64,000 bases of DNA from an uncultured Candidatus Saccharibacteria bacterium (GTDB taxonomy: Bacteria > Patescibacteriota > Minisyncoccia > Phycocordibacterales > DSPV01), in the NCBI GenBank assembly GCA_964617735.1, contig CAZTXT010000001.1, positions 331,589 through 395,588 on the forward strand, read 5' to 3'. Positions 5,823 through 50,160 of this stretch are shown here, piece after piece. Position 1 is the first letter of the stretch; each line of letters begins with the position of its first letter. The notes below the pieces were generated by a model. It did not search any database. It saw only the letters and a list, made by a program, of their open reading frames with translations, and was not told the DNA's origin. Made by a program: the position numbers and the translations under genes.

Positions 5823-5893
5823 AACAAAAAGATCGAAGATTGAATAAAAATCAAAAGTCAGAGATACGGATCAAGATCGTGAAGGGTCTGTCA

Positions 5894-6142: not shown

Positions 6143-6208
6143 AGCAGAACAGGGGAGAAATGCAAGAGAATGAAAAGAGCCGGAAACTCCGAATAAGGAA
6201 TTTCCAGC

Positions 6209-6652
6209 TCATGATTGACGCTGGTCATGCCGAGCTTCCTCGGGCAGTTTGTCGAGTATCTTAGCGGAGATATTCTCCACACCTTCTACTAGAGCTCGTA
6301 TAAGACGGTGGGTACCGTCAACAACGTCGCCTTGATAGAGCAGAAGTGGATATCGCCTATCTGCCTGATTAATTCGGCGAATATGATCAGACCAGGTTGG
6401 ATGTTCACCTGCAACCGCTTCCCATGTTCCGAGAGTTCTGTAAGCAGAAAGGAGGTCTCGGGGAGAGAAATCTTTTTGACATGAATCTTTCCAACATTTG
6501 TTGAGTATCTGAGGCTCTAGAGTGCTTATCTTCATCTCGACGTGTTCCGTGTGAGAGGTCAGTCGTATGAGCTTATACACGTCGTAAGATTTTCCTTCTA
6601 CAGTCAGTTTATGAGCATCCTTATCAGTGCTTTCAAATGGCAGGTTCTTCAT
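6209..6652 (-). CDS. ParB/Srx-like nuclease domain protein (hypothetical)
   Basis: 'VVDGTHRLIRALVEG' resembles the ParB N-domain DGxHR motif. The gene sits in a low-GC stretch (about 6150-6800). Confidence 0.4.
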   Translation of the reverse strand: MKNLPFESTDKDAHKLTVEGKSYDVYKLIRLTSHTEHVEMKISTLEPQILNKCWKDSCQKDFSPRDLLSAYRTLGTWEAVAGEHPTWSDHIRRINQADRRYPLLLYQGDVVDGTHRLIRALVEGVENISAKILDKLPEEARHDQRQS

Positions 6653-6818
6653 ACAATGTCTTTCATTTTGTTTTTGGGTGCAGACCTACCCGATAATTTA
6701 GCATATAAGTGGGAGTCTGTCAACTATTTTCAATCGTGAAGCTGACCTATAATGACCACGCCATCAATTCTTTTTATAAGGATCTGAACGGGATTGTTCA
6801 GTAATTTTCCAACTTCGT

Positions 6819-7139
6819 ATGAAGAAACATAGCGCGAAGAAAAATTCTATCAAGGTACGACCGCTCGGCGATCGGGTGCTCATCAAAGAACTTAATAAGA
6901 GCGGAGAAGGAGAAACGAAAAGCGGCATTATCATTCCCGAAACCGTCAGCGATGATAAGGGTGCCAAGAAAGGTACTGTTGTTGCTGTAGGGCCGGGCAG
7001 GATGGAAGACGGGAAGACGATCATGGTGCAGGTTTCAGTTGGGGACACAGTGCTTTTCCAGTGGGGAGATATGATCAAGATCGATGGCGAAGAGTATATG
7101 CTGGTGAGCGAGAGCAATATTATTGCCATTGTGAAATAA
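6819..7139 (+). CDS. groES: Co-chaperonin GroES
   Basis: 'KVRPLGDRVLIK...GIIIPET' Cpn10 signature, immediately upstream of groEL. Confidence 0.9.
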   Translation: MKKHSAKKNSIKVRPLGDRVLIKELNKSGEGETKSGIIIPETVSDDKGAKKGTVVAVGPGRMEDGKTIMVQVSVGDTVLFQWGDMIKIDGEEYMLVSESNIIAIVK

Positions 7140-7146
7140 ACATTAA

Positions 7147-8820
<1,674 letters not shown>

Positions 8821-11409: not shown

Positions 11410-13338
11410 ATGGCATGGGACGACGGTTTAAGCGCAGGAACATCGGCGCATCGGATTGCGGGATCAACCCATCGGCGTATTCGGGTTTTAGCGGGTCCTG
11501 GCACGGGTAAATCCTTCGCAATGAAGCGACGTGTGGCTCGCATACTTGAAGTTGAAGGCATCGATCCTACGCAGGTGCTCGCAGTAACCTTTACACGAGT
11601 TGCTGCTGAAGATATTCAGCGTGAACTTCTGTCCTTGGGTGTGACGGGCGCTGACAGGTTGAAAGCAAAGACACTCCACAGTCTGGCGATGTCGATACTC
11701 ATGCGTAATCATGTGCTTACCGCCTTAGGTCGAGTACCAAGACCTCTCAACAAATATGAACTTGAGCCATTATTGGCAGATTTGAGTAATACACACGGAA
11801 ACAAGCGTGAGCGTAAGCGTTTGATTAGGGCTTACTCTGCCGCATGGGCACGCCTACAAACTCAGGAGCCTGGGTATACTCGCTCTCCAGCAGAACAATC
11901 TTTTGTGGACGATTTGGTTGCCTGGTTACGTTTTCACAAAGCGATGCTCGTCGATGAATTGATACCGCATCTGTACCAATACTTACGAAATAATCCGGGG
12001 GCTCCAGAAAGAAACGAATTTCGACACCTGTTGGTTGATGAATATCAAGATCTAAATCGTGCTGAACAAGACGCCCTCCATTTTCTTGGGGAGAGCGGCT
12101 CTCTTTGCGTTATTGGTGACGACGATCAATCTATTTATAGCTTCAAACACGCACACCCTGAAGGTATTCGTGATTGGAGCACGGTGCACGCGGCAGACGA
12201 TCATGCAATAGAAGAGTGTCGAAGGTGTCCGACCACTGTCGTACGAATGGCGAACGCCCTCATAGCGCGGAACACTGATCGAATTGTGGGCCGTCTGATG
12301 ACCGAGAGACCAGAAAATGGCTCGGGTGAAGTTGTAATACGCCAATACCGGAGTGCCACACAGGAAACGGAGGCAGTTGCCGAAAGAATATCAGCGTTGA
12401 TAGCAAGTGGTATTGCGCCGAGCGAGATTATTGTTCTCACTCAACGCGAAGCATTTGCTACACCAATTTTTGATCAACTGAGAACGAAAAATATCCCAAC
12501 AAAATCCTATTACGCCGAATCGAGCCTCGACACATTGGAGGCCCAGGAGCGCTTCGCGACCCTAAAGCTCCTTTTGGATAACGAGGATCGAATCGCTTTA
12601 CGTTGGCTCCTTGGCTATGGGGCGGCGGATTGGAGAACGAATGCGTATCGACGTTTAATGAATTACGTAAGAGCAAATCACACATCTCCTTGGAATGCCT
12701 TAAATGCGCTGGTGGCAGGTACCGTCAGTGTTCCTTATACAGGCGCTCTCGTGAGTCGATTCAACGTAATCAAAGCTGAACTAGACTCGTTGCAGGGCGC
12801 GGCAAATCTGGATGAATTCATTTCGCGCTGGCTTCCAGAAAACCCCAATACCGCACTTCTCAGTGAAGCTGTCACTCAAAGCAAAGAAGGACTTGAAACT
12901 TCTCAAGAACTTTACGACGCCTTATACGAAGCGATCACGCACCCAGAAATACCATCTGAAGTTTCGGAAGTAAGGATAATGAGTCTACATAAAAGTAAGG
13001 GTCTGAGTGCCCCGTTCGTATTCATTGTTGGCTGCGTTGAGGGCCTCTTACCCGCATCGGCCGATCCGGATCTAACCGAGGACGAGCAAGCCGCAAAACT
13101 CGAAGAGGATCGGCGGCTATTTTATGTCGGAATTACCCGAGTCAAAGCCGACCCTACGGCAAATATAGTAGGGTATTTGGCCCTGACCTATGCCCGTACT
13201 ATGCCTGCGGCCGAAGCATATGTTAGTCAAATTACACCCTCTCAAACCGTAGGAGGAATGGCATATTTGCAGCCGACTCGGTTCATTGCAGAAATGGCTC
13301 CTCACGCCCCTGTGGCACAGACCAACACCCCTCTCTAA
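11410..13338 (+). CDS. UvrD/Rep-like superfamily 1 DNA helicase (short form)
   Basis: Walker A 'VLAGPGTGKS', motif II 'LLVDEYQDLN', 'VLAVTFTRVAAEDIQ', C-terminal 'IMSLHKSKGLSAPFVFIVGC' UvrD_C motif. Confidence 0.8.
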   Translation: MAWDDGLSAGTSAHRIAGSTHRRIRVLAGPGTGKSFAMKRRVARILEVEGIDPTQVLAVTFTRVAAEDIQRELLSLGVTGADRLKAKTLHSLAMSILMRNHVLTALGRVPRPLNKYELEPLLADLSNTHGNKRERKRLIRAYSAAWARLQTQEPGYTRSPAEQSFVDDLVAWLRFHKAMLVDELIPHLYQYLRNNPGAPERNEFRHLLVDEYQDLNRAEQDALHFLGESGSLCVIGDDDQSIYSFKHAHPEGIRDWSTVHAADDHAIEECRRCPTTVVRMANALIARNTDRIVGRLMTERPENGSGEVVIRQYRSATQETEAVAERISALIASGIAPSEIIVLTQREAFATPIFDQLRTKNIPTKSYYAESSLDTLEAQERFATLKLLLDNEDRIALRWLLGYGAADWRTNAYRRLMNYVRANHTSPWNALNALVAGTVSVPYTGALVSRFNVIKAELDSLQGAANLDEFISRWLPENPNTALLSEAVTQSKEGLETSQELYDALYEAITHPEIPSEVSEVRIMSLHKSKGLSAPFVFIVGCVEGLLPASADPDLTEDEQAAKLEEDRRLFYVGITRVKADPTANIVGYLALTYARTMPAAEAYVSQITPSQTVGGMAYLQPTRFIAEMAPHAPVAQTNTPL

Positions 13339-14511
13339 TTGTCTATGAGTAAGGATGATTATTTCTACCAACACTTGCAGAAAAATACCCTAAAAGATAA
13401 GGATGTTTTTTTGTGGGCGGCTTTAAACATTGAAAATAGCTTTTCGGGGCGGGTTGATATTCTTACGACCGGGCTACACCGATTCTTTTTAGAATCATCG
13501 AAGTTAATACTGAATGCGATTAAGCTTTACGAAGAGGGGTTTTTTGATGCCGCCTTCTACAGCACACGCTCTGCCCTTGAACTCGCGAGAGTTGTTACAT
13601 ATTTCTCAAATGAGAATGAACTTCAGGATAGTGAGGAATATAAAAATTGGAGAAAAGGTGGAAAATTCCCTTTTGATGCAGCAATAAGAAAACAACTGGA
13701 AGCAAGTGGAAGTGTGTACACAGAGGTACACACAACATTGAAGGATTTCTTTGACGAGCAGAAGGATCGACTTTCATCCGTTCAAAAATATATACACAAG
13801 CAAGGTTATAGGACCTTTTATGAAAGAGGATTTACGAATCCAGAAAGGGATAAACAACGGCAGGAAGTAATTGCCGATGATTTCTACCAGTTTCTTAAGG
13901 GGACGTTGGCTGAAGTAGCTTTTCTACGTTTATGTATTGATCCGTTCCCAATCCTCTTACGTGATAGTCAGGTAATGTATAAAATTCATTTTCAAGGAAT
14001 GACGGAGCCTTTTAGTGACGATTTTGTTACTAAAATTATTGGAGAAAATAAAATCAAACTGTACCGTTCAACCGAATTTTACGTCTCGCATCTAAATTAT
14101 TTTAGCGACAACGAAGAACTTACCGAAGAGATGTATACATTGGTTAATAACCAATACTACGATAGAAAAACCTGGTCGATTATTCAACCGCAAGTACATT
14201 TACTTTCCAAAAACGACACCGCTGCAGTCAACATATTTAATATCTCAAATAAGATTGCGAAAATATATATGTTTGGCGGGTTTGTTTGGTACTTCAGTGA
14301 TGTTAATTCACCTGGAGACCATACAGGATTTTCTTCAGAAGACTTATTGAGGGTAAAAGAGTCAGAGATAAAAACTAACTCAAAATACAAAGAATCCTAC
14401 ATGTCTTATTTCAACTTCGACGACGATGGTTTATGGGTTGAGCACAACGAGCCGCTAAACAAACCTGAGATCATTGAAATCGAGAAAGTACTCAATCCTA
14501 AGGTTCAATAG
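13339..14511 (+). CDS. Hypothetical 390-aa protein, translationally coupled to the helicase, AT-rich
   Basis: The TTG/ATG start abuts the helicase stop (TAA at 13336-13338). Codon composition differs markedly from the flanking genes. No motif recognised. Confidence 0.55.
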   Translation: MSMSKDDYFYQHLQKNTLKDKDVFLWAALNIENSFSGRVDILTTGLHRFFLESSKLILNAIKLYEEGFFDAAFYSTRSALELARVVTYFSNENELQDSEEYKNWRKGGKFPFDAAIRKQLEASGSVYTEVHTTLKDFFDEQKDRLSSVQKYIHKQGYRTFYERGFTNPERDKQRQEVIADDFYQFLKGTLAEVAFLRLCIDPFPILLRDSQVMYKIHFQGMTEPFSDDFVTKIIGENKIKLYRSTEFYVSHLNYFSDNEELTEEMYTLVNNQYYDRKTWSIIQPQVHLLSKNDTAAVNIFNISNKIAKIYMFGGFVWYFSDVNSPGDHTGFSSEDLLRVKESEIKTNSKYKESYMSYFNFDDDGLWVEHNEPLNKPEIIEIEKVLNPKVQ

Positions 14512-14794
14512 TTACACTACCTTTTGTAATTTTAATCCTGGACTTAAAACACCCCATAAGTTCACGTTTCTCCGCTCCCGTACCTTCTTTCAGAATGTAT
14601 TTCGCGTAGGTCCGTTGATCAACTTCCTCATGTTTCGTCTTGGCTCCGGAGAACCCTAGTACGCTTCGTTGAAACTTGTTGAATCGTTGTAGTTCTTCCT
14701 CGAACTTGTATCTGATGCCCAGCTCGTTGAAATCGACCTTATCCAAGTTTACGTACGAAAGGAAGCCGTGTTTTCGGTTCAAACTTCGGGACAT
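14498..14794 (-). CDS. Hypothetical small protein (about 99 aa) convergent on the helicase operon
   Basis: Internal Met with an upstream purine-rich stretch. The longer ORF reads through repeat B2, so the short form is preferred. Confidence 0.25.
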   Translation of the reverse strand: MSRSLNRKHGFLSYVNLDKVDFNELGIRYKFEEELQRFNKFQRSVLGFSGAKTKHEEVDQRTYAKYILKEGTGAEKRELMGCFKSRIKITKGSVTIEP

Positions 14795-14962
14795 CGTCCC
14801 CGTATTTGCAAAATTGATAGCTTTTGCTATCTCATTTTGCAAACAAGTTGAGGAAGCGGAGCTTCCGTGAGATTCGAACAGCGGAGCGGTGTTTCGCCAG
14901 CAGGCGAAACCGCGAGCTGGTGCCCAGACCGAGCCGAGTGACGACGAGGCGAGAGTTGCGGG

Positions 14963-15019
14963 CGAATCTCTCCTCCTCCGCCCGAAGAAGAAAGTATCGG
15001 AGATATGCGGACGCATAGC
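14963..15019 (+). repeat. Direct repeat B2 (contains an 18-bp copy of the tRNA-Ser 3' end)
   Basis: See B1. Confidence 0.8.
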
Positions 15020-15102
15020 AGCGAGAGGCGTTATGGGTCGGTTCTTGTACATAGAAGTTCAGCCAGCTTGAGAAAGCTTCGTACTAAATGTAATAATTAC
15101 GC

Positions 15103-32943: not shown

Positions 32944-33020
32944 GCCGGGGTAGCTCAGTTGGTTAGAGCGTCCGCCTGAAGAGCGGTAGGTCGCCAGTTC
33001 GACTCTGGCCCCCGGCACCA
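32944..33020 (+). tRNA. tRNA-Phe(GAA) with encoded CCA
   Basis: Acceptor GCCGGGG/CCCCGGC, D-arm 'agctcagttggttagagc', anticodon loop 'ctGAAga', T-arm GCCAG-TTCGACT-CTGGC, CCA at 33018-33020. Confidence 0.9.
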
Positions 33021-34475
33021 GTTGGGAAAAGTCAAAGAATCTTTATTCGCCTCGCTTCGCTCGGCGAGCACTTCGCGCGGCCTGTTCAGCGTAAAATGCA
33101 GTTTCCGATCTTCCAGACAAAAGTTCGAGCCGATGGTTTTAAGAAATGTTGTCATTCCTGCAAAGTTCTCCGAACTTTGCAGAATAAAGGCTTGATTCAA
33201 GGATTTTACGAACTCACGAGCTAGTTCGAGCCACGACAATCCTTTCTGTTCAAAATCAGTGATTTGTTCCTGAAGTTGTAACTTTTGGGAAATGAATTTT
33301 TCTTTTTTCCTCGCGTACTCTTCATGCGTCAACCCCTCACTCAAATACAAGTCTACAAGCTTGTCCAGCTTTTTCTCGACATCGGCTAACTCGACTTTAA
33401 GATTTTGAACAGAAAGGACAGCTTGTTGCCTTGCTCGCCTTTCGTCTTTTTCAAGTTCTGCTAATACCTTCTCCATGTCGTGGCTCGGCAAGGAAACTTT
33501 TCGTAAGAGATTTCTGATTTGCTCGGCTAACTTTTCCTCCCGCACAAAATGCTTTTCTTGGCAGTTTCCTTTTTTCTTGGTGCATCGGTAGTAGTGGTGT
33601 CCTTTCTGTATTTCGGCGGTGATTGAACATCCGCAACTTTTGCATTTCATAAGTCCAAGAAAAGCAAAGTGGTGTTTCTTTATCTCGCAGACCTTGCCGC
33701 GTTTTTCCAAAACCTCCTGCACCTTGTCGAAAAGTTTCTTTGATATGATCGGCTCGTGAGTTCCTTCGAAAATTTCCCCCTTCCACCTCATGAGTCCGGT
33801 GTAGAAAATATTTTGTAGCATGACAGGAATATGGCTCATGGCGATATTGCCGTTTGTATTGCTTTTCAGACCATTTTCCTTGCACCAATTTGCGAGAGAG
33901 TGGAGAGTGTAGTTTCCGGTGGAATACAGTTCAAATAACCTCCTCACTTTTGGGGCTTTCTCCGCATCAACATCAATTCCTCTCGTCTTTGGGTTGTTCA
34001 GGTATCCCACCGGAGCCCAGCCAGGCCAAACGCCATTTCGTATTTTTTGTCTCAAACCTCGCTTCACATTCTCTCGCAAATTGTCTACAAAATATTTTGA
34101 TTGGCCGAAAGCGATATTGAGCATAAACGAACCTTGCGGTGTCGGTTCGAACCAGAAGGTGGGAAATTTCAAAGATCTAATCAAGCCTTTATCAATCATG
34201 TAAATGATGCGTCCACCATCTACACTGTTTCTCGCAAGACGATCGGGGTGCCATGAGACAATACCCTCGGCTTTTCCTTTCTCAATCAATGACAACATTT
34301 CTTGAAACTTGGGACGGCCAGTCTCTTTGGCTGTTTGTGCCTCGCAAAGCGAGGCGACAATTTCAAGTTTTTCTTTGGCGCAATACAAAGACAGCTCAGC
34401 AAGCTGAGCTTGAATTGAAAGCACTTGTCGGTCATCTTCCTCGGTTGATTTCCGAGCGTAGAGGATGTATTTCAT
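32955..34475 (-). CDS. Large serine recombinase (resolvase catalytic domain, recombinase domain and zinc ribbon)
   Basis: N-terminal 'YARKSTEEDD' catalytic Ser motif, zinc-ribbon 'CKSCGCS...YYRC'. The last roughly 20 codons run antisense through tRNA-Phe. Confidence 0.85.
   Translation of the reverse strand: MKYILYARKSTEEDDRQVLSIQAQLAELSLYCAKEKLEIVASLCEAQTAKETGRPKFQEMLSLIEKGKAEGIVSWHPDRLARNSVDGGRIIYMIDKGLIRSLKFPTFWFEPTPQGSFMLNIAFGQSKYFVDNLRENVKRGLRQKIRNGVWPGWAPVGYLNNPKTRGIDVDAEKAPKVRRLFELYSTGNYTLHSLANWCKENGLKSNTNGNIAMSHIPVMLQNIFYTGLMRWKGEIFEGTHEPIISKKLFDKVQEVLEKRGKVCEIKKHHFAFLGLMKCKSCGCSITAEIQKGHHYYRCTKKKGNCQEKHFVREEKLAEQIRNLLRKVSLPSHDMEKVLAELEKDERRARQQAVLSVQNLKVELADVEKKLDKLVDLYLSEGLTHEEYARKKEKFISQKLQLQEQITDFEQKGLSWLELAREFVKSLNQAFILQSSENFAGMTTFLKTIGSNFCLEDRKLHFTLNRPREVLAERSEANKDSLTFPNWCRGPESNWRPTALQADALTN
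33014..33094. repeat. Inverted repeat a, left copy (includes the tRNA-Phe CCA end)
   Basis: Reverse complement of 34530-34610. Confidence 0.8.
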
Positions 34476-34529
34476 GGTTTTGGTGAGAGTTAGTTGATAA
34501 AAATGTTCTTGTATTCTTCCCTAGGGAAT

Positions 34530-34610
34530 TTCACGCTGAACAGGCCGCACGAAGTGCTCGCCGAGCGAAGCGAGGCGAATAAAGATTCTTTGACTTTTCC
34601 CAACTGGTGC
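34530..34610. repeat. Inverted repeat a, right copy
   Basis: Contains a copy of the recombinase C-terminal coding segment (ORF 34494..34679 shares '...FTLNRP.EVLAERSEANKDSLTFPNWC'). Confidence 0.8.
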
Positions 34611-34695
34611 ACTACTCTTGAATTAGTCCGAACGCATTTTGCCGCCGCAGGCGGCGAGGACTGTCCGCGCGAGAATTGAGCGGGCGGAGCCCGCA
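34607..34695. repeat. Inverted repeat b, left copy
   Basis: Reverse complement matches 35995-36085 over about 55 bp at the outer ends, with a variable centre. Confidence 0.7.
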
Positions 34696-35008
34696 TCTTT
34701 TCAAACAGCCAAAGAGGACTAATTCAAGAAAACCATCGACTCGAACTTTTGTCTGGAAGATCGGAGGGAAGAACACAAGAACATTTTTATCTGATTTAAC
34801 GGCCTAGAAAGGCCGTATTTTGATGGTTGTTCTGTACCTTGACTAAACACAAGCTATATGTTATTCTCTCTGCAGTTCGTTGTAAGCGAGTATTTTTGGA
34901 ATTGCCGTAGCATTTGCGGGCTTGTTGGCTTTGTCTAACACGTTTAACTAACAAAGGACTATCGCATGTGAAAGATGACTTGAGTGAGTCATCTAAGTCA
35001 ACGTAGCA

Positions 35009-35722
35009 GTGCACTATAAGCCTATGGATCCAAAAAAGACTCATAGGTTACCTCATCTCCCTCGTCGTCCACGTCCGGCTGGAGAAGCTGAACGCTTGTC
35101 TCGCTGGTTTCGTGACAGGGATATGGAGCTGCAGATTCGCCGAAACCAGGAACGTCGTGGAGAAATACACAACGTTCCGGTCCCTCTAAAAGATCGGATT
35201 CGAAAGAAGACTGATCCGAAAGAGTGGGCTGGCCCTTTTCACAAGGGGGTCAAGGTTGGTGAGATCCGCTCACTCGTGGTTGGGTATACCGCAGTAATGG
35301 TAGACCCAGTGTTTGTTGCAGTGCTGAGCGAATGGCCGCCGAACCCAGAAGTTAAGGAACCCTACTCGAAAGAGAAACGGTTTCTGATCGCAAAGTTCAG
35401 CAGCAAGCGCTACAGTGAACCCGCAACAACAACCGAGTGGATTACTGGCATTGAGAAGCGACCGTGGCTACACGTTTTATCCGTGTGGAACAGTTGCGAC
35501 GTCAGTGCCGGTTTCCTTGAGGAAGGTTGGGTCGAGGGGAAACTCTCGACTGAACAGCTCGCTGACGCATGGGAAGTATTCAGACATGCGTTGACGGGAG
35601 TTCCTCTGTCTGATCGAGTTCGTGCTCAAGTGGGTGCGCCAATAATTCACCCACGAGATCCACGCATTCAGTATCAGATCGAGGAGGCTTCAAGGTTTGC
35701 GGTTCTCTGCGAAGGCAGCTAA
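35009..35722 (+). CDS. Hypothetical 237-aa protein (cargo of the tRNA-Phe element)
   Basis: ORF enclosed by the inverted repeat b pair. No motif recognised. An upstream sigma70-like 'TTGACT...TATATG' lies at about 34840-34868. Confidence 0.45.
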   Translation: MHYKPMDPKKTHRLPHLPRRPRPAGEAERLSRWFRDRDMELQIRRNQERRGEIHNVPVPLKDRIRKKTDPKEWAGPFHKGVKVGEIRSLVVGYTAVMVDPVFVAVLSEWPPNPEVKEPYSKEKRFLIAKFSSKRYSEPATTTEWITGIEKRPWLHVLSVWNSCDVSAGFLEEGWVEGKLSTEQLADAWEVFRHALTGVPLSDRVRAQVGAPIIHPRDPRIQYQIEEASRFAVLCEGS

Positions 35723-35994
35723 CCCATGTGAGGTAACCAATACTGGGAGATCAGAGCATCTGATCGGTTGAACCAGCGGGGGACGGAGAAAACGCCCTGG
35801 CAACAGAAGCTAGTACGGGATCATAAGCTACATACATTCCCGAAAGCACAACTAGGTACGGCAACTACCTCAATCGTTGCATTCAAGGAGCGAGGTTCTA
35901 TCCCAAACTCCGCCGCACACATAAGTGTGCGGTTTTTCGTATTCGCTTGGCGAATGCTAGAATTAGTTTGCGCCAAAGAAAAACTTGAAATTGT

Positions 35995-36085
35995 CAAAGA
36001 TCGCGGGCTCCGCCCGCTCCGTTTTTACGGGGGGTGTCCTCGCCGCCTACGGCGGCGAAATGCGTTCGGACTAATTCAAGAGTAG
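35995..36085. repeat. Inverted repeat b, right copy
   Basis: See inverted repeat b, left copy. Confidence 0.7.
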
Positions 36086-36226
36086 TGCACAAGAAAATCG
36101 GCGCAAGCCGATTTTGCGTGATGGGGGCCAGAGGGGGAAGGGGTCGGGGAACAGGGACGTTCCCCGATGAGGAGAGCAGTCTGCCGAAGGCGAGACGTTG
36201 AGAACCGCGGGTTCTCAAGGAGCGTA

Positions 36227-36248
36227 GCGACTCTGTGCCCCGGCACAA
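36227..36248 (+). repeat. Partial copy of the tRNA-Phe 3' end (attR-like)
   Basis: 'gcgactctgtgccccggcacaa' vs tRNA 'ttcgactctggcccccggcacca' (20 of 22 identical). Confidence 0.6.
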
Positions 36249-36268
36249 GAAAATCGGCGCAAGGATAT

Positions 36269-44307: not shown

Positions 44308-44382
44308 GGCCCTATCGTCTAACGGTTAGGACGTGGGCTTTTCAAGCCTAAAATCCGGGTTCGATTCCCGGTAGGGTCACCA
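44308..44382 (+). tRNA. tRNA-Glu(UUC) with encoded CCA
   Basis: Acceptor GGCCCTA/TAGGGTC, anticodon loop 'ttTTCaa', T-arm CCGGG-TTCGATT-CCCGG. Confidence 0.85.
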
Positions 44383-46084
44383 GTTGGGTTTTATCCCGTT
44401 TGAAATCTTCAGATAGCTTGAAGAGTGGCTGTAATTTTGGTGTTCCATTAACTATCTCGGAGTAGGTCGGAACTTCCTCAAAAAATAAGCTCAATAGGGC
44501 TCGGCGTGACTGCAGATTGTCTGCGTTTGCAATGATTTCTGCGGGGTGTTCCATTATGCGTCGCGCGTAGCTAATAAACCCTTTGATGCTTCTCTCGGTG
44601 ATTTCAATCTGACCGCGTTTGCTTTCTGCCTCCTTAATACGGGCATCAAGCTCGTGCACTTGCTCTTCGAGCATGCGCCGCACTGTCGCATTGTCGGTCA
44701 ACGTAAGTGCATCAAGTTTGCGGACTTGTTCGGCTTTTAAATCTCCAACGTTGTGGCTAATTCGAGAGGACTGTTCAACGATTTCCTTCTCACGTTCGCG
44801 GTATTTTTTAATCAGCTTTTCGTGTAGCTTGTCGATAAAAGATTTATCAAATCGCAAACTGTCCAAATAATTCTTGATATTTTCTTCGAACTCTTTCTTT
44901 GGGACTCTGAAGCCGACATGCGCTCGCTTACTAACTTTTGCGCCGCCGCAATGATAAGCGGGAAACGTCTCACCGGATTTACCTCGAGACGCGCTCCCGA
45001 GGCATTCGGCTCTGCAGTGAGGGCATGGAATCACTTTCCATGGATATAAGGGATTGTCCTTCATTCGCTTCACTTTGCCCCATGGAGTGTAGTTATGAAC
45101 GACTTGAACGGTATTGTCGGCATTTTCTTTAATAAAAATTGCTCCGCGGTTTGCGCGATTAAACTTGTCGATGGAAACGATGCCTGTGAATTGCTGCATC
45201 CGTACGGGTTGGTGCTTTGTCCATTTTTCGTAATTTATTCCCGCATATTCTGTCTGAAGCACGAAACGCTGAAGCTGCTTCACTGTTAAAGATTTGCCCC
45301 CTCTTTTGCCGACGATTTTATAGTTCTCTACGTCACTTCTATCCCAACGCCTGTATGCGCGTGTCTTAAAGCCCTCTGCGTTTAGTTGCTTAACAATTTC
45401 TTTGTCGTCAACGCCAGCCGCTCGCAAGTCAAACATTTTGACGAAGAAATGTGCTCTTTCGGGGTCTGCCTCTCGGACAACGCGCTCTCGTCGGCCAATG
45501 ATAATCTTTTTATTTTTGAGACCGTCAGGAGCACGTCTCCCAGCGTAACCATCACGTACGTAACCAATTTCTGCCCCGACCATTCGCGTAAGGATATCTC
45601 TTGCTTCGGCCTTGCCTCTATGCGCTTCTAGCATCTCGGCTGCTTCACTCGGGTAGAACCTACTCCACTCGTATTCAACTCCAAGATGCTCCAGCGTATT
45701 CTTTTCAGGTTGGATTATTCCGTAGCTATCGCAAATTTGTACGCCGATTTTCGCAAAATCTTTTTTTAGGCGGTCGTATTCTGGGAAACCCTCGCGCGTG
45801 AGGCGGTCGATGGATTTAAAAATATAATACTGGATTGGTCTTGAAGCGTTCTTGCGGTTCCATCCTGAAATAAATTGCTTAATCATTTCGATATCTTCTC
45901 GCTCTGCGGTCGTCGCAGAGTGCGGTTTCTTAAAGACCTTGGCAACATCCCAATTACGACCCTCGGCATAACGACGTCCGATAATTTCTTGGTCTTCCAA
46001 ACTGCTTCCGCCCACTTGGCTGATATCACTCACGCGACAGTCGATTACGCAGTATTCTTTTTTGTCTTCAGTCGCCATACTCAA
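44348..46084 (-). CDS. Large serine recombinase
   Basis: N-terminal 'CVIDCRVSDISQ' catalytic Ser motif, recombinase domain and a Cys-rich zinc ribbon ('CPHCRAEC...YHCGG'). The C-terminus overlaps tRNA-Glu antisense. Confidence 0.85.
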   Translation of the reverse strand: MSMATEDKKEYCVIDCRVSDISQVGGSSLEDQEIIGRRYAEGRNWDVAKVFKKPHSATTAEREDIEMIKQFISGWNRKNASRPIQYYIFKSIDRLTREGFPEYDRLKKDFAKIGVQICDSYGIIQPEKNTLEHLGVEYEWSRFYPSEAAEMLEAHRGKAEARDILTRMVGAEIGYVRDGYAGRRAPDGLKNKKIIIGRRERVVREADPERAHFFVKMFDLRAAGVDDKEIVKQLNAEGFKTRAYRRWDRSDVENYKIVGKRGGKSLTVKQLQRFVLQTEYAGINYEKWTKHQPVRMQQFTGIVSIDKFNRANRGAIFIKENADNTVQVVHNYTPWGKVKRMKDNPLYPWKVIPCPHCRAECLGSASRGKSGETFPAYHCGGAKVSKRAHVGFRVPKKEFEENIKNYLDSLRFDKSFIDKLHEKLIKKYREREKEIVEQSSRISHNVGDLKAEQVRKLDALTLTDNATVRRMLEEQVHELDARIKEAESKRGQIEITERSIKGFISYARRIMEHPAEIIANADNLQSRRALLSLFFEEVPTYSEIVNGTPKLQPLFKLSEDFKRDKTQLVTLPGIEPGF

Positions 46085-46326
46085 ATGTTATCAGTTTCTA
46101 CCGGAAGAGCGGAACCGTTTTTTAGCTCGCGTAGCCACGAGTCGAAAAGCACGTCGGATAGTTGTTCCAACAATAAATCGACCCGTTCGACCGACGGAAA
46201 GTCGCTGCTGCCTTTGATTTCGTCTTTAGGTGCCACAGAAGCCCGCTCATGGCCTTGCAGGTGTCGGGAGAGACCCACAAAGCCATAAAAGGGCTTCGGT
46301 TCTCCCAACTTCTTGAAATGGGGCAA
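46081..46326 (-). CDS. Small protein translationally coupled to the recombinase (possible RDF/excisionase-like)
   Basis: ATGA overlap with the recombinase start. No motif recognised. Confidence 0.3.
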   Translation of the reverse strand: MPHFKKLGEPKPFYGFVGLSRHLQGHERASVAPKDEIKGSSDFPSVERVDLLLEQLSDVLFDSWLRELKNGSALPVETDNI

Positions 46327-46439
46327 TAAAAAAGCCCCGACCTCAAATCGGCATTTCTCAGGCCAGAGCGGACTCTGCGAGAAATAGCCGATTTCCTTGG
46401 CGTGGCTCGCTTTGTCCTGTGGCAGTTAGTCCAATTCTA

Positions 46440-47195
46440 TCACGCAGCGTGGGCAGCTGTCACTGCGCCCTTTTGTCGTTCATAGGCGCGTATTATGGCC
46501 TCCTTCAATTCATTCGGCTTAACCTCGTATATTTGGAAATCTTTGATATTGTCCTCCTTCAAGTGCAATTGGCCTTCTCCAACGTTCCCGCGATGCTGCC
46601 CCTTGGAATAGTATTTATTGCTCTTTACCTCATCTGAAGATAAGACCCAGTACTTGATAACGTCGCGCCAAACGGCTACCCATACAAAAACGTCACAGTG
46701 TGCCGGCTTGATTTGCTGAAAATTCATCCAAAACGAATGCTTACTTTCAAAAGAAAGGGCTTTAACGTAAAGCGCCTCTGAACTATCGCCATTGACAGCA
46801 CGGGACGCTTTAACCTCAATGCGTATCAAATTACTGCCATCATTGAGCAAAAAGTCGTAGTCACCTTTGTAATTTTGCTCAATTTTTTTCGTGGGCTTAA
46901 CTAGGTCAGGAACAAGCTCCTTTAAATGACCTTGTGCCCACTGTTCGCCAAATCCTCGTGGTGAACTTATCTCGAATATGTAAAGGTACATATTTCGAGC
47001 AATATATTCGTCTCTGATTTCGTAATAATCGTCCAGCGTTATTTTTCCAAATCCCATGAGTGACGAAATGATGTATTCGTACTCGTTAAATGGGTACACT
47101 GACACCAAGTCAGTTAAGCGTGAGCGAATAATTTCCCGCTTATCTGCCGACAGCTCGTCAATCAGCTTGTTCAGTTTTTCTTTCAGGTACTCCAT
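46440..47195 (-). CDS. PD-(D/E)xK nuclease-like protein (candidate restriction endonuclease)
   Basis: 'GDYDFLLNDGSNLIRIEVKAS' fits D...(E/D)xK. Lies immediately downstream of the MTase with a 3-nt gap. Confidence 0.45.
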   Translation of the reverse strand: MEYLKEKLNKLIDELSADKREIIRSRLTDLVSVYPFNEYEYIISSLMGFGKITLDDYYEIRDEYIARNMYLYIFEISSPRGFGEQWAQGHLKELVPDLVKPTKKIEQNYKGDYDFLLNDGSNLIRIEVKASRAVNGDSSEALYVKALSFESKHSFWMNFQQIKPAHCDVFVWVAVWRDVIKYWVLSSDEVKSNKYYSKGQHRGNVGEGQLHLKEDNIKDFQIYEVKPNELKEAIIRAYERQKGAVTAAHAA

Positions 47196-47198
47196 TGT

Positions 47199-49136
47199 TT
47201 ATTCGTATGTTAATAATTTCTCGGATGATTTAATGCCTTGCCTGACAAACTCCTGCTCACCCTTGGTTAGGTTAAACAGTTCCATTATAGAACAGTCGAG
47301 TTTATTGTGCATTTCTGCGCGTTCCTGTGCAGGGGTCTCTTTTCGCAGGAGTACTTCAAGCATTTTTGCAATTATTTTATGCTGACTTTCAGAAATAAGT
47401 GGTAGGGGCAGCTTCTCGACATCGCTTCGCAAAATCTTTATCGAGCGGAATTTCTTTTGATATACAAACTGGTAAAGAGAAGAATTAAATAATGCGAGTA
47501 CGGTCTTTATAGGATAGTTGGGAACTTTTGGAATTAAAATGTTGGCACTATTCAGAGTAAGCGTCTGCTTGTCGTCATAAGCAAAAACCAAATCCTTCGA
47601 AATGAATTTGTATATCAGTTTCTCCGCCGCTCTATATTTGCCTACGGGTGCTACCTGTTGAAATTTATCTGGCTCGAACTTAATGAAATGTTTTGGTGAA
47701 TTAAACAAGTATCGCTTTATCTCCTTACCGGTCAAAATGGCTTCGCTTCCAGCTTCTTTTTTGGGAAGAAGATACTTCTTATTATCACCAGTTACTACTC
47801 CAAGAGCCCACTCCGATTGACCTGCAAGTGAGGTGTGCTTTACGGCGAAAAACTTGTCGATGATGGCAAGTTCGTTGTTTCCGTTGAACACATCGAACGT
47901 AAAGTCAGGGTTCGACTTTAGCCGTGCTTGCAGCACTTTGTGAACAGTGCCGTTTTCCACCTCAAATTCGGAATTTTCGCTTGGCATTTTCTTGCGGACG
48001 TCCAAACGTATTACCGGTGTGAATACTTTCTTAAAAACGCGATTTAGGTGCTTTACTCTCGCGATTTCTGTCTGATGCAGTATTAAATTTCGAACATCCC
48101 TATGGATTTTTACGTGGAGGATTGCTTCGGGCAATATATAAGCCAAAACCCCACCATCCTTAAGCATGTCACGCCCCTTTGATATAAAAAGTGAAAATGC
48201 TTCGTCGGAGCTTATGTGCGGATAATTCTCCTGAATTTGTACAATCTCCGAGGGAGAGAAATGGACTCCCCATGGTGGGTTTGTCATCACAACATCAAAT
48301 TCTGGGAGCGCTTCCGAGTCAGAAAATAGAGTGTCTTTTAAAAATATATTTGGTTCGAAATCTGTGTCAGCAAATTTAATCAGAAGGTTAATACGTGCAA
48401 TTTTGACGGCAGTTTCGTCGATATCAAACCCCCACAATTGTGATGGATGTTTTACTGCGGTCGCAGCAGAAAGTAAAAATTGTCCGGTGCCACAGCATGG
48501 GTCTAAAACGATGCCAGAGGGTTGGACATATTCCTGCACGATATCTTCTACGACCCAGCGTGGAGTATAGTAAGACCCGCCTTGTGCCTTTTTTCCTTCC
48601 AACGAAAGAGATTGGTAAATGAGTCCGAGAAAATCACCGGTCTTTGGCAACTTATATTTGAGCAAGTCAGAATATTCAGTTTCAGAAAAAGTATTTTTTG
48701 TCCGCTCTTTCCACCAATTCAGTTCTTGCTTTAAACTTTTGCTTTTGAGCCCAGCTGCTTTAACTGCATTGAATACAAGTGCATAAAGCAGCGCATGTTT
48801 ATCTAATTCTCGGGAATGAAATTCATCCAGTACGTACTGAACAAAATGCAACATTTCCTCGCTGTCCGCGTATTCTTCGGGGATAAACATGCCTTGAGCA
48901 TGCTTTTTGTTCGCTCGCTTATTAAGTCGACCGAGTTCGCCATTGGCTATCTTTTCCTTCAGGTCTCGAACTTGTTGGTAGTCGAATAAAACCTTTCTTC
49001 CTTGGGTTGTCGGGACAAGATAATCGTGCCTTATCCAATTACGAACAGTGGCCGAAGAAACGCCTAAAAGCGACACTGCTTCTTTAAGGTCTATTTCTCT
49101 TTGTGGCGCACTTTGCATGTAACCATTGTAATACAA
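47199..49136 (-). CDS. N6-adenine DNA methyltransferase (gamma class) with N-terminal HTH_17/MerR-like domain
   Basis: Motif I 'VLDPCCGTGQFLLSA' precedes motif IV 'VVMTNPPWG'. N-terminal 'LKEAVSLLGVSSATVRNWIRHDYLVP'. Confidence 0.8.
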   Translation of the reverse strand: MYYNGYMQSAPQREIDLKEAVSLLGVSSATVRNWIRHDYLVPTTQGRKVLFDYQQVRDLKEKIANGELGRLNKRANKKHAQGMFIPEEYADSEEMLHFVQYVLDEFHSRELDKHALLYALVFNAVKAAGLKSKSLKQELNWWKERTKNTFSETEYSDLLKYKLPKTGDFLGLIYQSLSLEGKKAQGGSYYTPRWVVEDIVQEYVQPSGIVLDPCCGTGQFLLSAATAVKHPSQLWGFDIDETAVKIARINLLIKFADTDFEPNIFLKDTLFSDSEALPEFDVVMTNPPWGVHFSPSEIVQIQENYPHISSDEAFSLFISKGRDMLKDGGVLAYILPEAILHVKIHRDVRNLILHQTEIARVKHLNRVFKKVFTPVIRLDVRKKMPSENSEFEVENGTVHKVLQARLKSNPDFTFDVFNGNNELAIIDKFFAVKHTSLAGQSEWALGVVTGDNKKYLLPKKEAGSEAILTGKEIKRYLFNSPKHFIKFEPDKFQQVAPVGKYRAAEKLIYKFISKDLVFAYDDKQTLTLNSANILIPKVPNYPIKTVLALFNSSLYQFVYQKKFRSIKILRSDVEKLPLPLISESQHKIIAKMLEVLLRKETPAQERAEMHNKLDCSIMELFNLTKGEQEFVRQGIKSSEKLLTYE

Positions 49137-49145
49137 CGCCTAAAT

Positions 49146-49598
49146 TCATGCCTTTTGTTTACGACCCCAGACAAGCTTTTGACGCAGTTTTTCTTCAAAT
49201 TCATCCACAAGGGCTTGAACTTCAGGACTAGGTGAAGGGTCGCTATGGGCGTCTCGACTTGTAATCTCTACTTTTTGCCGTACCCCAAATTCATATGGTC
49301 TTTTACGCTCAAGATACCGAAATGCGTATACCGGATTATCAAGATTTTGTACCATTGTTTGCCGAGCTTTTAATATTGGCTGCGTTCGTATGGCTTCAAA
49401 CCTCTCCAAAAGGTCTCTATTTTGACTTATCCAGTGATAGTAGGTTGAAGGGGAGATGTTGGCATAAAAACAAGCTTCTTCGACTGTTGCGTCGAGCGCA
49501 AATGCTTGTTCGAGCTTTTGTATGGTTTCGGGTTTGAACTTACTCACTGCTCGCGAGATTCGCTGTCTTCGAAGCTGTTCGTTAGATGGCCTAGTCAT
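49146..49598 (-). CDS. Terminase small subunit-like HTH protein
   Basis: 'KFKPETIQKLEQAFALDATVEEACFYANISPSTYYHWISQNRDLLERFEAIR' resembles the Terminase_2 (TerS) N-terminal HTH pattern. Confidence 0.45.
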   Translation of the reverse strand: MTRPSNEQLRRQRISRAVSKFKPETIQKLEQAFALDATVEEACFYANISPSTYYHWISQNRDLLERFEAIRTQPILKARQTMVQNLDNPVYAFRYLERKRPYEFGVRQKVEITSRDAHSDPSPSPEVQALVDEFEEKLRQKLVWGRKQKA

Positions 49599-50160
49599 AG
49601 TGTTCTATTACACAATGGTGAGAATCTTTAATCGAAAAAAGTCGACTTTACGCGGGCGATAAGTTCAACGCGTTGGTGGTTTCAAACACGCGGTTCCAAG
49701 AAATTATCATGCTTTCCATAGTGTTCCATTGGAAGTACACTGGGCTCAAAAAGCGTCAGAAATCGCAAAGCAATTTGCGATTTTAGCTTTTGACGGGCGC
49801 AGTGATGTTTCGTTAGCAAACGAAACCACGAGCCGGGGTCGCGAAATTTCCGAGCGACGGCGAGGAAATATTCGTGACCATATATAATCTGTAAAAAATT
49901 ACCCAACCGAGGTTGGGTAATTGACTGGCTGTGTCAGTGCCGCAGCCGAGCTTTTTGTTTACGCTCAATCAGTTTGGTCGCCGTTGCAACGAGCCAGGCG
50001 TAGCAGTAAACGAACAGTAGCATACCGGCGTCTATCACGGAATGTCGGCGCATCTTCATAGAACCTCCGTTGATATTCTAGTCTCTGGAATTCTTTTTTC
50101 AAGAAGCCCCCTGATGATGCAGAGACTGTATGCATCGGTCCTAGATACTCTTCTATCCGA

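Follow-up and report, generated by a model that had tools for sequence, protein, structure and literature searches.

The long inverted repeat in the 64-kb window (the whole stretch of 64,000 nucleotides analyzed) belongs, with a probability of about 75%, to an integrative element of approximately 3.07 kb (33015-36090), inserted by a large serine recombinase (LSR) in the 3' end of a tRNA-Phe gene. The whole attP region of about 200 bp (P' arm R, core and P arm X) is present twice, in inverted orientation. The copy overlapping the 3' end of the recombinase gene was used for integration and is now split into attL (tRNA/R) and attR (X'/host, 36087). The long inverted repeat thus results from the doubling of the attP region in inverted orientation and the use of one of the two copies. 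Evidence for the element was obtained from junction comparison, empty sites of related genomes and about 55 homologous loci.

The repeat search delimited two arms of 83 nt, at 33015-33097 and 34528-34610, which are 98% complementary with 2 mismatches and lie 1430 nt apart. With 97.6% identity by blastn (E = 1.7e-35), the match is far beyond chance for 64 kb. The near-perfect repeat of about 80 bp proposed in the first-pass annotation is real, its coordinates (33014-33094/34530-34610) being off by 1-3 nt, and the CCA end of the tRNA does lie inside the left arm. The first six bases of this arm, gcacca (33015-33020), are the last six of tRNA-Phe (anticodon GAA; 32944-33020, forward strand), an intact integration target identified by ARAGORN and Rfam (RF00005, 70 bits). 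The left arm, R, is the P' arm of attL and also encodes recombinase codons 460-487. The right arm is the P' arm of an intact, inverted spare attP, with the core gtgc at 34607-34610.

The recombinase ORF (32955-34475, reverse strand) encodes a protein of 506 aa with resolvase catalytic, Recombinase and zinc ribbon domains, in agreement with the large serine recombinase proposed at first. The resolvase catalytic domain (PF00239) spans residues 4-150 (E = 5.7e-22), and matches to PF07508 (E = 1.1e-17) and to the zinc ribbon PF13408 (E = 2.6e-7) were also found. The YARKST motif with the catalytic serine was read from the translation at residues 6-11, and the nearest solved structure is the C-terminal domain of A118 integrase (4kis/6dnw; residues 169-413, E about 1e-6). 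The ORF runs antisense through the tRNA, as first described, covering 66 nt of it. The right repeat had been taken to duplicate the last 25 or so codons of the gene; codons 460-487 are indeed duplicated, but 19 more codons follow, which are antisense tRNA. The native C-terminal tail and stop codon are located in X (ORF 34494-34679), so that the last 20 or so codons of the recombinase and its native terminator are replaced on integration. Upstream of the recombinase ATG, no consistent sigma70 promoter match was found, only the conserved a1' motif, GGGGGAAGAAAATTTTTTAAT.

The extent of the insertion was determined from empty sites. In related Taylorbacteria without the element, tRNA-Phe and Hsp20 are separated by about 340 nt, compared with 3.25 kb in the window, and therefore the inserted DNA is about 3 kb and not 1.6 kb. 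The right end of the element is X' (35996-36090, reverse strand), which forms the P arm of attR and includes the core GCAC of this site at 36087-36090. Its sequence is unlike R, and only the 4-nt core is in common with the tRNA junction. The host flank beyond it (36091-36263, forward strand) starts with Y (36091-36107), within a hairpin. Further on, it contains the decayed remains of a tRNA-Phe-like sequence (about 36172-36246) and GCAC plus Y once more (36243-36263), the latter forming an attB-like junction. The Logan assemblies SRR12313479 and SRR12313480, independent of each other, contain both the tRNA/repeat junction and the far junction (36087), indicating that the layout is not an assembly chimera. 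Only the occupied site, and no empty-site allele, was found in these two Logan sets of the same population. The Rfam scan of the region between 31 and 38 kb returned tRNAs and no other RNA family, and full-text literature searches gave no published description of the element.

Inside the element, the spare attP (R/X, 34528-34728) is intact and inverted, 20 nt upstream of the recombinase start. Its P arm, X (34611-34728, forward strand), mimics a tRNA T-arm, with CCGAAC placed 5 nt further out than in the tRNA, and also contains, besides the native tail and stop of the recombinase, a terminator-like hairpin (34680-34694). X and X' are mutually inverted and 87% identical (repeat 34604-34700/35996-36093). 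Several shorter repeats, absent from the first-pass annotation, belong to the same structure. The a1' motif (34496-34522), located between the start of the recombinase gene and the spare attP, recurs in inverted form as the a1 motif (34765-34791). The latter closes the module together with an inverted copy (34729-34765) of gene segment C (33104-33140). Segment D (33136-33156) pairs with N1 (34288-34308) within the gene. Two further segments of the 5' part of the gene (34288-34383) have their inverted copies next to the P arms: that of N2 (34323-34337) adjoins X (34702-34716), and that of N (34356-34383; recombinase codons 31-40) abuts X' (35968-35995).

The attL core GCAC (33015-33018, forward strand; tRNA nt 71-74) is the sole sequence common to attL, the internal attP and attR, and the only one shared by the four junctions tRNA/R, X/R, X'/Y and tRNA-like/Y. 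When the three junctions were compared in about 40 loci, the shared sequence was 3-8 nt long, usually GTGC, with a minimum of TGC. Such a minimum would accommodate a 2-nt crossover at tRNA nt 71-73. The core co-varies with tRNA type (Ala GTGG, Asn GCTC, Gln CTGC), and within one core class the element is not bound to a single tRNA. The exchange point thus lies within tRNA nt 71-74 and the tRNA is left intact; the element side starts with the CA of the CCA end (33019-33020), directly past the core, followed by the trailer.

Around this core, all 38 loci compared have TCGAAC at +33 toward the tRNA and at +38 toward X, a 5-bp offset, and attP has the symmetry TTGACT-N14-core-N14-AGTC(C/A). Each site consists of two half-sites, inverted about a short core, and the outward shift of the distal motif by 5 bp in attP is typical of LSR attP/attB pairs. 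This spacing agrees with the A118 structure, in which the motif likewise stands farther from the center in attP. On the host side of attR, the information content across loci is about 0 bits. From what is known of LSR structure, the T-arm and acceptor end of tRNA genes probably act as the B half-site and X as the matching P half-site, with the host-side B' arm left unread; recognition of the universal T-arm and acceptor end alone would lead to insertion at many different tRNAs. The first-pass annotation had contrasted the long repeats with the short att sites expected of LSRs; the repeats are unusual for such enzymes, but short sites are present as well, in the form of half-sites and a 4-nt core.

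Homologues of the recombinase (E<=1e-20) amounted to 7,916 sequences, all from Patescibacteria. A phage origin was rejected, with only 2 partial matches in IMG/VR. Of 73 genome loci, 61 have a convergent tRNA 3' end at the junction, and the tRNAs concerned represent 22 anticodon classes and 13 amino acids. The gene 3' end lies at a tRNA in at least 90 of 120 homologues, a strong orientation bias, and the C-terminal tail is antisense tRNA in 88/120 and the native X tail in 2/120. Such antisense-tRNA tails account for the variable C-termini of many Patescibacteria recombinase ORFs. A chance duplication, proposed at first for the case that homologues lacked the repeat, is contradicted by its presence in 53 of 55 eligible loci (median length 100 nt, median identity 99%, 26 perfect), which makes it a conserved feature of the family. 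It is kept with fixed boundaries across lineages about 30% diverged in protein sequence. X, the short repeat copies, cargo and X' accompany the gene in about 40 loci, and the same layout recurs in dozens of assemblies, which come from separate studies and were made with different programs. The elements have a median size of 2.7 kb (range 2.3-3.5 kb) with one variable cargo gene, and co-resident copies within one MAG are 74-81% identical. Since the repeat is longer than k in de Bruijn assembly, contigs tend to end at these genes.

A sigma70-like promoter sequence lies over the core of the spare attP (34590-34618, forward strand), with a -35 box TTGACT (34590-34595), a 17-nt spacer and a -10 box TACTCT (34613-34618), directed into X and the cargo. 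The pattern TTGnnn-17-nAnnnT is found in the same register in 41 of 46 loci, with a mean score of 8.5/12 compared with 6.2 for attL and 6.8 for shuffles; the -10 hexamer varies across loci, with A2 and T6 kept. Integration splits such a promoter-like sequence over the core of the attP copy that is used, and the spare attP retains one that faces the cargo side. In the window, the -10 hexamer TACTCT is weak. Terminator-like hairpins inside X stand between the attP promoter and the cargo gene. The cargo ORF itself (35009-35722, forward strand) encodes 237 aa of no known family, for which the 80 loci gave no homologue, Pfam no family and the contig index no entry. A promoter-like site precedes it at 34839-34867, and a terminator-like hairpin follows at 35912-35933. 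No conserved extra ORF, as a candidate directionality factor, was found in the element.

Rearranged states were observed among homologous loci. Up to the core, the loci L082 and L012 agree in 99.0% of their sequence; beyond it, L012 continues into tRNA-Arg and L082 into X, and the same contrast between tRNA-joined and X-joined was found for L037 and L081. In near-identical elements, the gene 3' end can therefore be found on a tRNA or on X. L082 is an array, and the upstream end of L081 is absent. The search for near-identical elements at different tRNAs, as a mark of recent transposition, yielded only two pairs, both tRNA-joined vs. X-joined. In addition, a tRNA-Ala occupies the position of the spare attP in L063, alternating R-gene-R'/X-cargo-X' arrays occur, and L082 contains tandem mini-units N2-C-R/X. 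The metagenome scan for a circular form with the C-R/X'-antiN pattern returned 5 loci, all of them tandem arrays of different copies with 86-93% identity. Arrays and hybrid junctions hint at relaxed site rules, though homologous recombination could give the same. The two repeat pairs of a locus can also differ in identity, with about 81-83% for one and 99-100% for the other in some loci. The mismatches between arms have no G:U bias (51 vs. 52) and include 66 transversions (39%). These data suggest that arm identity is upheld at the DNA level, by recombination and gene conversion.

Regarding the role of the spare copy, the most likely proposal, to which slightly less than an even chance is given, is that the element consists of two modules bounded by inverted half-sites, R-recombinase-R' and X-cargo-X', in which every R/X junction would be a full recombination site. 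The recombinase segment would thereby be invertible, and the junctions could recombine with other tRNAs or with other elements, resulting in arrays and cargo exchange. Candidate roles of the spare attP are gene inversion, cargo expression, further recombination and cassette exchange. Excision is predicted to leave an empty site in which CCCCGGCAC is joined to AAGAAAATCGGCGC, preceded by the true tRNA-Phe body, and the circle joint is predicted to be ...TTCCCAACTGGTGC followed by ACTACTCTTGAATTAGTCCGAACGCATTTCGCCGCCGTAGG, with X'-specific bases. A canonical LSR acts on attP and attB and on no other pair of sites, except together with a directionality factor. Inversion between attL and attP, or exchange between two attP sites, would break this rule, and RecA-mediated recombination could yield the same products as LSR inversion or exchange. 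Given the strong orientation bias (at least 90/120 with the gene 3' end at a tRNA), free flipping is unlikely. The conserved short repeats N, N2, C and N1:D fall outside the account given by the two-module model. The copy in the window may be old, given the 87% identity between X and X' and the weak -10 box.

A further extension is doubtful: the element might be a serine-recombinase counterpart of an integron or shufflon, in which any R/X junction would be at once a site and a promoter, exchangeable with any other junction. If true, an LSR would operate without a directionality factor on sites of the same type and with only one target arm read, the tRNA T-arm and acceptor end would be a generic chromosomal docking half-site, and cassettes would be shuffled and inserted at most CPR tRNA genes and, in principle, at tRNA genes of any organism.

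Among the explanations that compete with the two-module model, a dedicated switch, in which the repeat serves recombinase- or RecA-driven flipping of the recombinase gene, survives best and is still unlikely. In one orientation, the gene would converge on the tRNA with a swapped tail and without terminator, presumably silent; in the other, it would follow the tRNA promoter in the same direction and possess the native tail and terminator. Nearly identical elements do occur in both configurations (L081 and L082 vs. L037 and L012), the arms are kept identical, and the native tail and terminator-like hairpin lie in X just past the right arm. However, the native tail was found in only 2 of 120 homologues, L082 is an array rather than a simple flip and L081 lacks its upstream end. 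Moreover, we know of no LSR recombination of attL with attP.

Two other explanations are improbable to a similar degree. In the first, the repeats would function as RNA: antisense copies of R, C and N2 upstream would bind the recombinase mRNA in the 3' and 5' parts of its coding region, by 5'-3' pairing or in a three-way junction, and control its translation or stability. The module folds far better than shuffled sequences on both strands (z = -6.1 and -8.6), the pairs antiC-antiN2, N2-N1 and D-C form a formally nested three-way junction, and N2, C and N1:D co-vary among loci. However, on neither strand are G:U pairs in excess among the mismatches, of which 39% are transversions, and the arcs R:antiR, a1:a1' and N:antiN cross the three-way junction; an RNA helix was rejected as the account of the repeats for the absent G:U bias and the crossing arcs. 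Furthermore, Rfam gave no match, perfect pairing over 100 nt is atypical for RNA regulation, and no promoter was found upstream of the module. In the second, the module would be an inert relic, an internally deleted and inverted second copy fixed in the family ancestor and subject to gene conversion. Its reverse complement, R/X-N2-C, is a circular permutation of a gene copy missing nt 159-1334, and the tandem mini-units of L082 agree with such an origin. A functionless relic is difficult to reconcile with a module retained in 53 of 55 loci, its boundaries fixed and its arms almost perfectly identical, across lineages with about 30% protein divergence, with the intact site and conserved promoter signal (A2 and T6 kept in a varying -10), or with the recombination of the module with other partners.

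The IS-like unit of the first-pass annotation, with 33015-34610 mobile as such and 83-bp terminal inverted repeats around the recombinase gene, is very improbable. The repeat brackets the gene exactly, some gene-only contigs end in both arms (L023, L035), and in L063 the gene lies between two tRNA junctions. However, the right arm is internal to an insertion of about 3 kb relative to empty sites; what lies beyond it is conserved element DNA and not host, X, the short repeats, cargo and X' accompany the gene in about 40 loci, and 33015-34610 has no flanking target duplication or direct repeat, only the 4-nt core recurring. Gene-only contigs are expected from de Bruijn assemblers at a repeat longer than k. 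Finally, a chimeric join of integrated and excised forms, conceivable for a window taken from a metagenome-assembled genome where attP-like and attB-like junctions coexist with attL and attR, has a negligible probability, given that dozens of assemblies, from various studies and made with various programs, agree in the layout and that Logan contigs of two runs reproduce the outer junctions.

LSRs are valued for genome engineering since short sites suffice, each enzyme usually having one natural target. The chromosomal target of this family of more than 7,900 members appears to be defined by one half-site, the T-arm and acceptor end of the tRNA, which may be called the most conserved sequence in biology. 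If confirmed in vitro, this would provide ready-made landing sites in any genome, as well as a natural experiment on attP/attB discrimination with a single specific arm. The family also appears to be a major, so far undescribed, CPR vehicle of single accessory genes (transporters, redox enzymes, methyltransferases), and it may be a source of rearrangements between tRNA genes. To our knowledge, a doubled inverted attP with an embedded promoter has not been reported for the LSR class, and this design raises questions on inversion, expression control and site rules.

Compared with known systems, the element shares with phage LSRs (A118/LI, phiC31, Bxb1) the domain set, similarity to the C-terminal domain of A118 integrase, an attP quasi-palindromic around a short core and the lack of target duplication. 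It differs from them in its general targeting of tRNA 3' ends (22 anticodon classes), where the B' arm is free of information, in the position of attP within the integrase ORF, in the inverted doubling of attP together with conserved flanks of about 100 nt on either side, and in its size of only 2.3-3.5 kb with one cargo gene. As in Tn4451/Tn4453 (TnpX) and Tn5397 (TndX), the LSR is the sole mobility protein. Those transposons are thought to move via a circle whose joint is the donor site, and owing to their relaxed site rules they need no separate directionality factor. Similarly relaxed rules would be required for the arrays and hybrid junctions described here. However, the TnpX/TndX elements have a GA crossover and joint-like targets, compared with the GCAC-type core found here, and have no tRNA targeting, internal spare site or 100-bp repeats.

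Integration at a tRNA 3' end with the tRNA left intact, as well as small variable cargo, is also known from tRNA islands and tycheposons. These use a tyrosine integrase, and tRNA islands leave a long direct repeat of the 3' part of the tRNA (tens of nt); the serine recombinase and the core of only 3-8 nt found here exclude a tyrosine-type tRNA island. Hin/Gin/Pin and the 2-micron plasmid (Flp/FRT) likewise have the recombinase gene within or near a segment flanked by inverted repeats with a crossover site, and the predicted circle, repeat-gene-repeat-cargo, would be similar to the 2-micron plasmid. However, Flp is a tyrosine recombinase, and Hin and Gin, although serine enzymes, are small invertases (about 190 aa, C-terminal HTH) that act on sites of about 26 bp with a Fis-bound enhancer. 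The 506-aa LSR rules out an invertase of the Hin/Gin type, and the strongly biased orientation is a further difference.

With respect to the promoter and the exchanged gene end, two precedents are relevant. In IS911, the Pjunc promoter is formed only when the ends are joined and is lost on integration, and in the immunity system of mycobacteriophages BPs and Brujita a gene is truncated depending on integration. The promoter-like site of attP resembles Pjunc in its layout, with the -35 box on one side of the joint and the -10 box on the other, and in being split on integration, and, as in BPs/Brujita, integration alters the C-terminus of a protein of the element. Unlike in these systems, the gene-proximal promoter-like site of attP faces away from the end of the recombinase gene, and a permanent, intact second copy of attP faces the cargo.

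The window carries an inverted repeat with arms, here R and R', at 33015-33097 and 34528-34610 (83 nt with 2 mismatches in a repeat search; blastn E = 1.7e-35), and the left arm opens with gcacca, the final six bases of tRNA-Phe (32944-33020, + strand). Between the arms lies a recombinase ORF (32955..34475, - strand, 506 aa) that extends antisense across 66 nt of tRNA-Phe. Resolvase, Recombinase and Zn_ribbon_recom domains were found in it, and it shows a recognisable resemblance to the A118 serine integrase C-terminal domain. The first-pass annotation had read this region as an IS-like unit around a large serine recombinase. Its enzyme class, its repeat with about 2 mismatches, the tRNA-Phe 3' end within the left arm and the antisense run through the tRNA were all borne out, and its repeat coordinates were right in location and 1-3 nt off at the exact ends.

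The same structure contains further repeat pairs: inverted pairs at 33104-33140 / 34729-34765 (segment C) and 34496-34522 / 34765-34791 (a1'/a1), a perfect 28-nt pair at 34356-34383 / 35968-35995 (segment N), and pairs at 33136-33156 / 34288-34308 (D / N1) and 34323-34337 / 34702-34716 (N2). In addition, a 95-nt element, X (34604-34700), has an inverted copy, X', at 35996-36093 with 87% identity, and a 21-nt direct repeat occupies 36087-36107 and 36243-36263. R also holds a GC-rich palindrome, tcgccgagcgaagcgaggcga (33045-33070 / 34555-34580), translated as AERSEAN. Since the peptide at this position varies widely among homologues (AEPAEAGEA, ERRVSRREA, AAAGGGG), the constraint may act on the palindrome as DNA instead of on the protein.

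Reading of the sequence gave four junctions with only GCAC in common. J1 (33015; ccccg GCAC cagttgggaaaagtc) joins the tRNA to R as attL, J2 (34610, minus strand; gagtagt GCAC cagttgggaaaagtc) joins X to R and is attP-like, J3 (36087; gagtagt GCAC aagaaaatcgg) joins X' to the host flank Y as attR, and J4 (36243; ctgtgccccg GCAC aagaaaatcgg) joins tRNA-like sequence to Y and is attB-like. By sequence, this is the attL/attP/attR/attB pattern of site-specific recombination, which sets the element at 33015 to 36090, about 3.07 kb. Ahead of J4 lies what resembles a decayed tRNA-Phe by local alignment (score 33 vs 21 ± 3.7 for shuffles), so that an attB-like junction lies 156 nt from attR; the tRNA-like stretch, at about 36172-36246, adjoins the second GCAC+Y copy (36243-36263).

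Proteins flanking the site place the organism close to Candidatus Taylorbacteria. In relatives whose Hsp20 is 82-84% identical, the order glutaredoxin, tRNA-Arg(CCT), tRNA-Phe, Hsp20 is retained, with about 340 nt from tRNA-Phe to Hsp20 vs 3.25 kb in the window, and no recombinase was found between these two genes. A chimeric assembly was ruled out as the source of the layout, since both J1 (contigs ending at 33044, 30 nt into the repeat) and J3 (contigs ending at 36061) recur in Logan assemblies of the same population, from two sequencing runs. It can be said with good confidence that the feature is a large-serine-recombinase element targeting a tRNA 3' end, that its left repeat arm is attL, and that the right arm is a spare attP, internal, inverted and still intact.

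Recombinase homologues number 7,916 at E<=1e-20, all in Patescibacteria, the best being about 70% identical; a phage integrase was rejected, with only two partial matches in IMG/VR. Element contigs also occur in MAGs labelled Gammaproteobacteria, Spirochaetia or Latescibacterota (loci L005, L010, L014, L019, L026, L028, L036, L046 and L051), which probably reflects mis-binning and not a wider host range. For comparison, 80 genome loci were retrieved. A convergent tRNA 3' end lies <=12 nt from the junction in 61 of the 73 loci extending past it, and the junction tRNAs span 22 anticodon classes and 13 amino acids. Among the 120 best proteins, 88 have antisense T-arm peptide tails (...WC xx [DE]SN...), 20 stop within 3 residues, 2 have the X-encoded tail (SILELVRTHF...) and about 8 have other tails.

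The homologue search that the first-pass annotation had proposed showed the repeat to be a family character, found in 53 of 55 loci with enough sequence (median length 100 nt; 26 perfect, 44 with an identity of >=97%). The median distance from the start codon to the inner end of the repeat is 44 nt, and the repeat sequence is not the same from locus to locus. The layout is conserved: X adjoins the upstream arm, a second, inverted X' lies 0.75-1.7 kb upstream of the start codon, and three stretches of the gene, nt 92-120 (N), 138-158 (N2) and 1335-1361 (C), have inverted copies at fixed positions. Elements have a median size of 2.7 kb (2.3-3.5 kb), and the interval from X' to the module holding the spare attP contains a single cargo gene in divergent orientation to the recombinase. 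The cargo differs in nearly every locus, and includes a sodium:solute symporter, FAD oxidoreductase, radical SAM protein, short-chain dehydrogenase, methyltransferases, DUF218, HNH nuclease and secreted Ig-like proteins; an HNH endonuclease is the sole cargo gene of one member (L081, 1664-2326).

When attL, internal attP and attR were aligned in about 40 loci, only 3-8 nt were common to them. On the recombinase strand the core is usually GTGC, that is GCAC in the tRNA sense (nt 71-73 plus C74), and it tracks tRNA type (GTGG at tRNA-Ala, GCTC at tRNA-Asn, CTGC at tRNA-Gln). The smallest shared core is TGC, so the exchange falls within tRNA nt 71-73. It leaves the tRNA sequence unchanged, and CA of the CCA end (33019-33020), followed by the trailer, opens the element side of attL. 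From position-wise information content, the attP consensus is TTGc.aTTTCCT.a.TGGTGC.GTATtcTtGAAaTAGTtCGAACgcATTTCGCCG; attL has the same left half and then ..GGA.TCGAAC of the antisense T-arm, and the host-side arm of attR has essentially zero information. Counted from the anchor, TCGAAC is at +33 on the tRNA side vs +38 on the X side in 38/38 loci. In the half-site model of Rutherford, Van Duyne and colleagues and the structure of A118 integrase bound to DNA, the distal zinc-ribbon-domain motif of attP reportedly sits 5 bp farther from the centre than that of attB, and this offset is the hallmark by which large serine recombinases distinguish the two sites. By this analogy, X looks like a P arm imitating the tRNA B arm, and an enzyme that reads the tRNA arm alone would account for the broad range of tRNA targets.

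X also codes the native end of the recombinase ORF (window ORF 34494-34679 ends ...FPNWC TTLELVRTHFAAAGGEDCPREN and a stop) and contains a terminator-like hairpin (34680-34694); therefore, integration via the gene-proximal attP exchanges the final ~20 codons and takes away the terminator. Intact attP carries a sigma70-like promoter in fixed register over the core, with TTGnnn in R, a 17-nt spacer and nAnnnT in X; by motif match, the window copy is at 34590-34618, directed into X, toward the cargo. TTGnnn-17-nAnnnT is present at attP (J2) in 41/46 loci, with a mean match of 8.5/12 vs 6.2 at attL (shuffles 6.8 ± 0.9). The -10 hexamer is variable (TATTCT, TATATT, GATAAT, CATAAT, GACAAT and others), with A2 and T6 kept. 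Being absent from attL, the promoter can exist only where R joins X, and integration splits its other copy.

Observations across loci say that R|X-type junctions do recombine. L082 and L012 share 99.0% identity over the 1,686 nt leading to the core, past which L012 runs into tRNA-Arg and L082 into X-N2-C-cargo; L081 and L037, 98.7% identical in whole-contig comparison, show the same contrast. In L063, an intact tRNA-Ala(CGC) replaces X at the spare site, and the 3' end of the gene adjoins part of a tRNA-Ala, beyond which comes tRNA-Ala(UGC); this looks like the footprint of a tRNA-to-tRNA inversion. The tRNA-Ala genes there (5799-7595) flank the recombinase gene in inverted orientation, the 3' fragment before the complete tRNA-Ala(UGC) being 40 nt long. 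In L082 (1-4377), L096 and L098, R-gene-R' units alternate with X-cargo-X' units, the units come from different lineages and adjacent copies are 86-93% identical; these arrays also contain gene-less mini-units, N2-C-R|X. Over 41 loci, the R/R' and X/X' pairs each have a median identity of 100%, and in 7 the two pairs have diverged to very unequal degrees (L034 R 81%, X 100%; L058 R 99%, X 83%; window R 97.6%, X 87%), as would be expected if partners swap at the core. Finally, in L008 (7461-7532) and L025 (5700-6796) the element gene end abuts X-like sequence of a different recombinase element, ..TACCAA[AG][TC]CGAACCTATTTTC; in the longer contig, L025, that element has, besides an XRE-type HTH gene, a different serine recombinase. 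Apparently, the X mimic can itself serve as an integration target.

The short inverted copies of recombinase coding segments form a conserved network of 18-37 nt at fixed places; N is nearly invariant in nucleotide sequence throughout the family, and C contains a T-loop-like CTCGAAC. The module (34496-34791) folds strongly on both strands, three short pairs make a formally nested three-way junction, and N2, C and N1:D co-vary among loci. Maintenance at the RNA level was nevertheless rejected, since the long repeats cross the three-way junction and the 169 mismatches in 8,836 repeat positions (51 G:U-type, 52 A:C-type, 66 transversions) show no wobble signature on either strand. From these comparisons, we conclude that repeat identity is maintained at the DNA level; no model accounts for the short repeats (N, N2, C, N1:D).

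A second large serine recombinase (44348..46084, - strand, 578 aa; Resolvase + Recombinase), unrelated to the first (BLASTP E = 0.31), ends antisense inside the tRNA-Glu 3' end (44308-44382, +), with the junction caccaGTTGGG as at tRNA-Phe. CPR serine recombinases may therefore tend more widely to target tRNA ends with a site that lies within their own ORF. No long inverted repeat comparable to that of the tRNA-Phe element was found at this locus (44308-49600); the duplicated attP is special to the family of the first recombinase. The low-GC island past the second recombinase has an Eco57I/TaqI-like DNA methylase of restriction-modification type (47199..49136, -) and an HTH protein. Another low-GC stretch (0.42-0.44), at 13000-15000 shortly past a UvrD-like helicase gene, has two ORFs without Pfam match (13339..14511, +, and 14498..15052, -).

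The spare attP may owe its presence to a two-module design, each module bounded by inverted half-sites, a reading which fits most observations. Each R|X junction would be a full recombination site plus promoter, the recombinase gene segment would be invertible and the cassettes exchangeable, and the excised circle would be repeat-gene-repeat-cargo, an order resembling that of the 2-micron plasmid. Against this design, gene orientation is ~95% biased, a metagenome scan found arrays of the L082/L096/L098 type only and no excised circle, and, to our knowledge, canonical large serine recombinases recombine attP with attB only. RecA-mediated recombination between the 100-bp arms could explain rare flips and the concerted evolution of the arms. 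The literature searched, of limited coverage such that an earlier report elsewhere is possible, described neither the family nor any tRNA-generalist serine integrase of CPR bacteria. Compared with known systems, the enzyme chemistry and half-site logic of the tRNA-targeting element are standard. Not standard are its targeting of a universal RNA-gene motif through a single informative arm, the location of attP within the recombinase ORF, and a conserved inverted second attP with embedded promoter.
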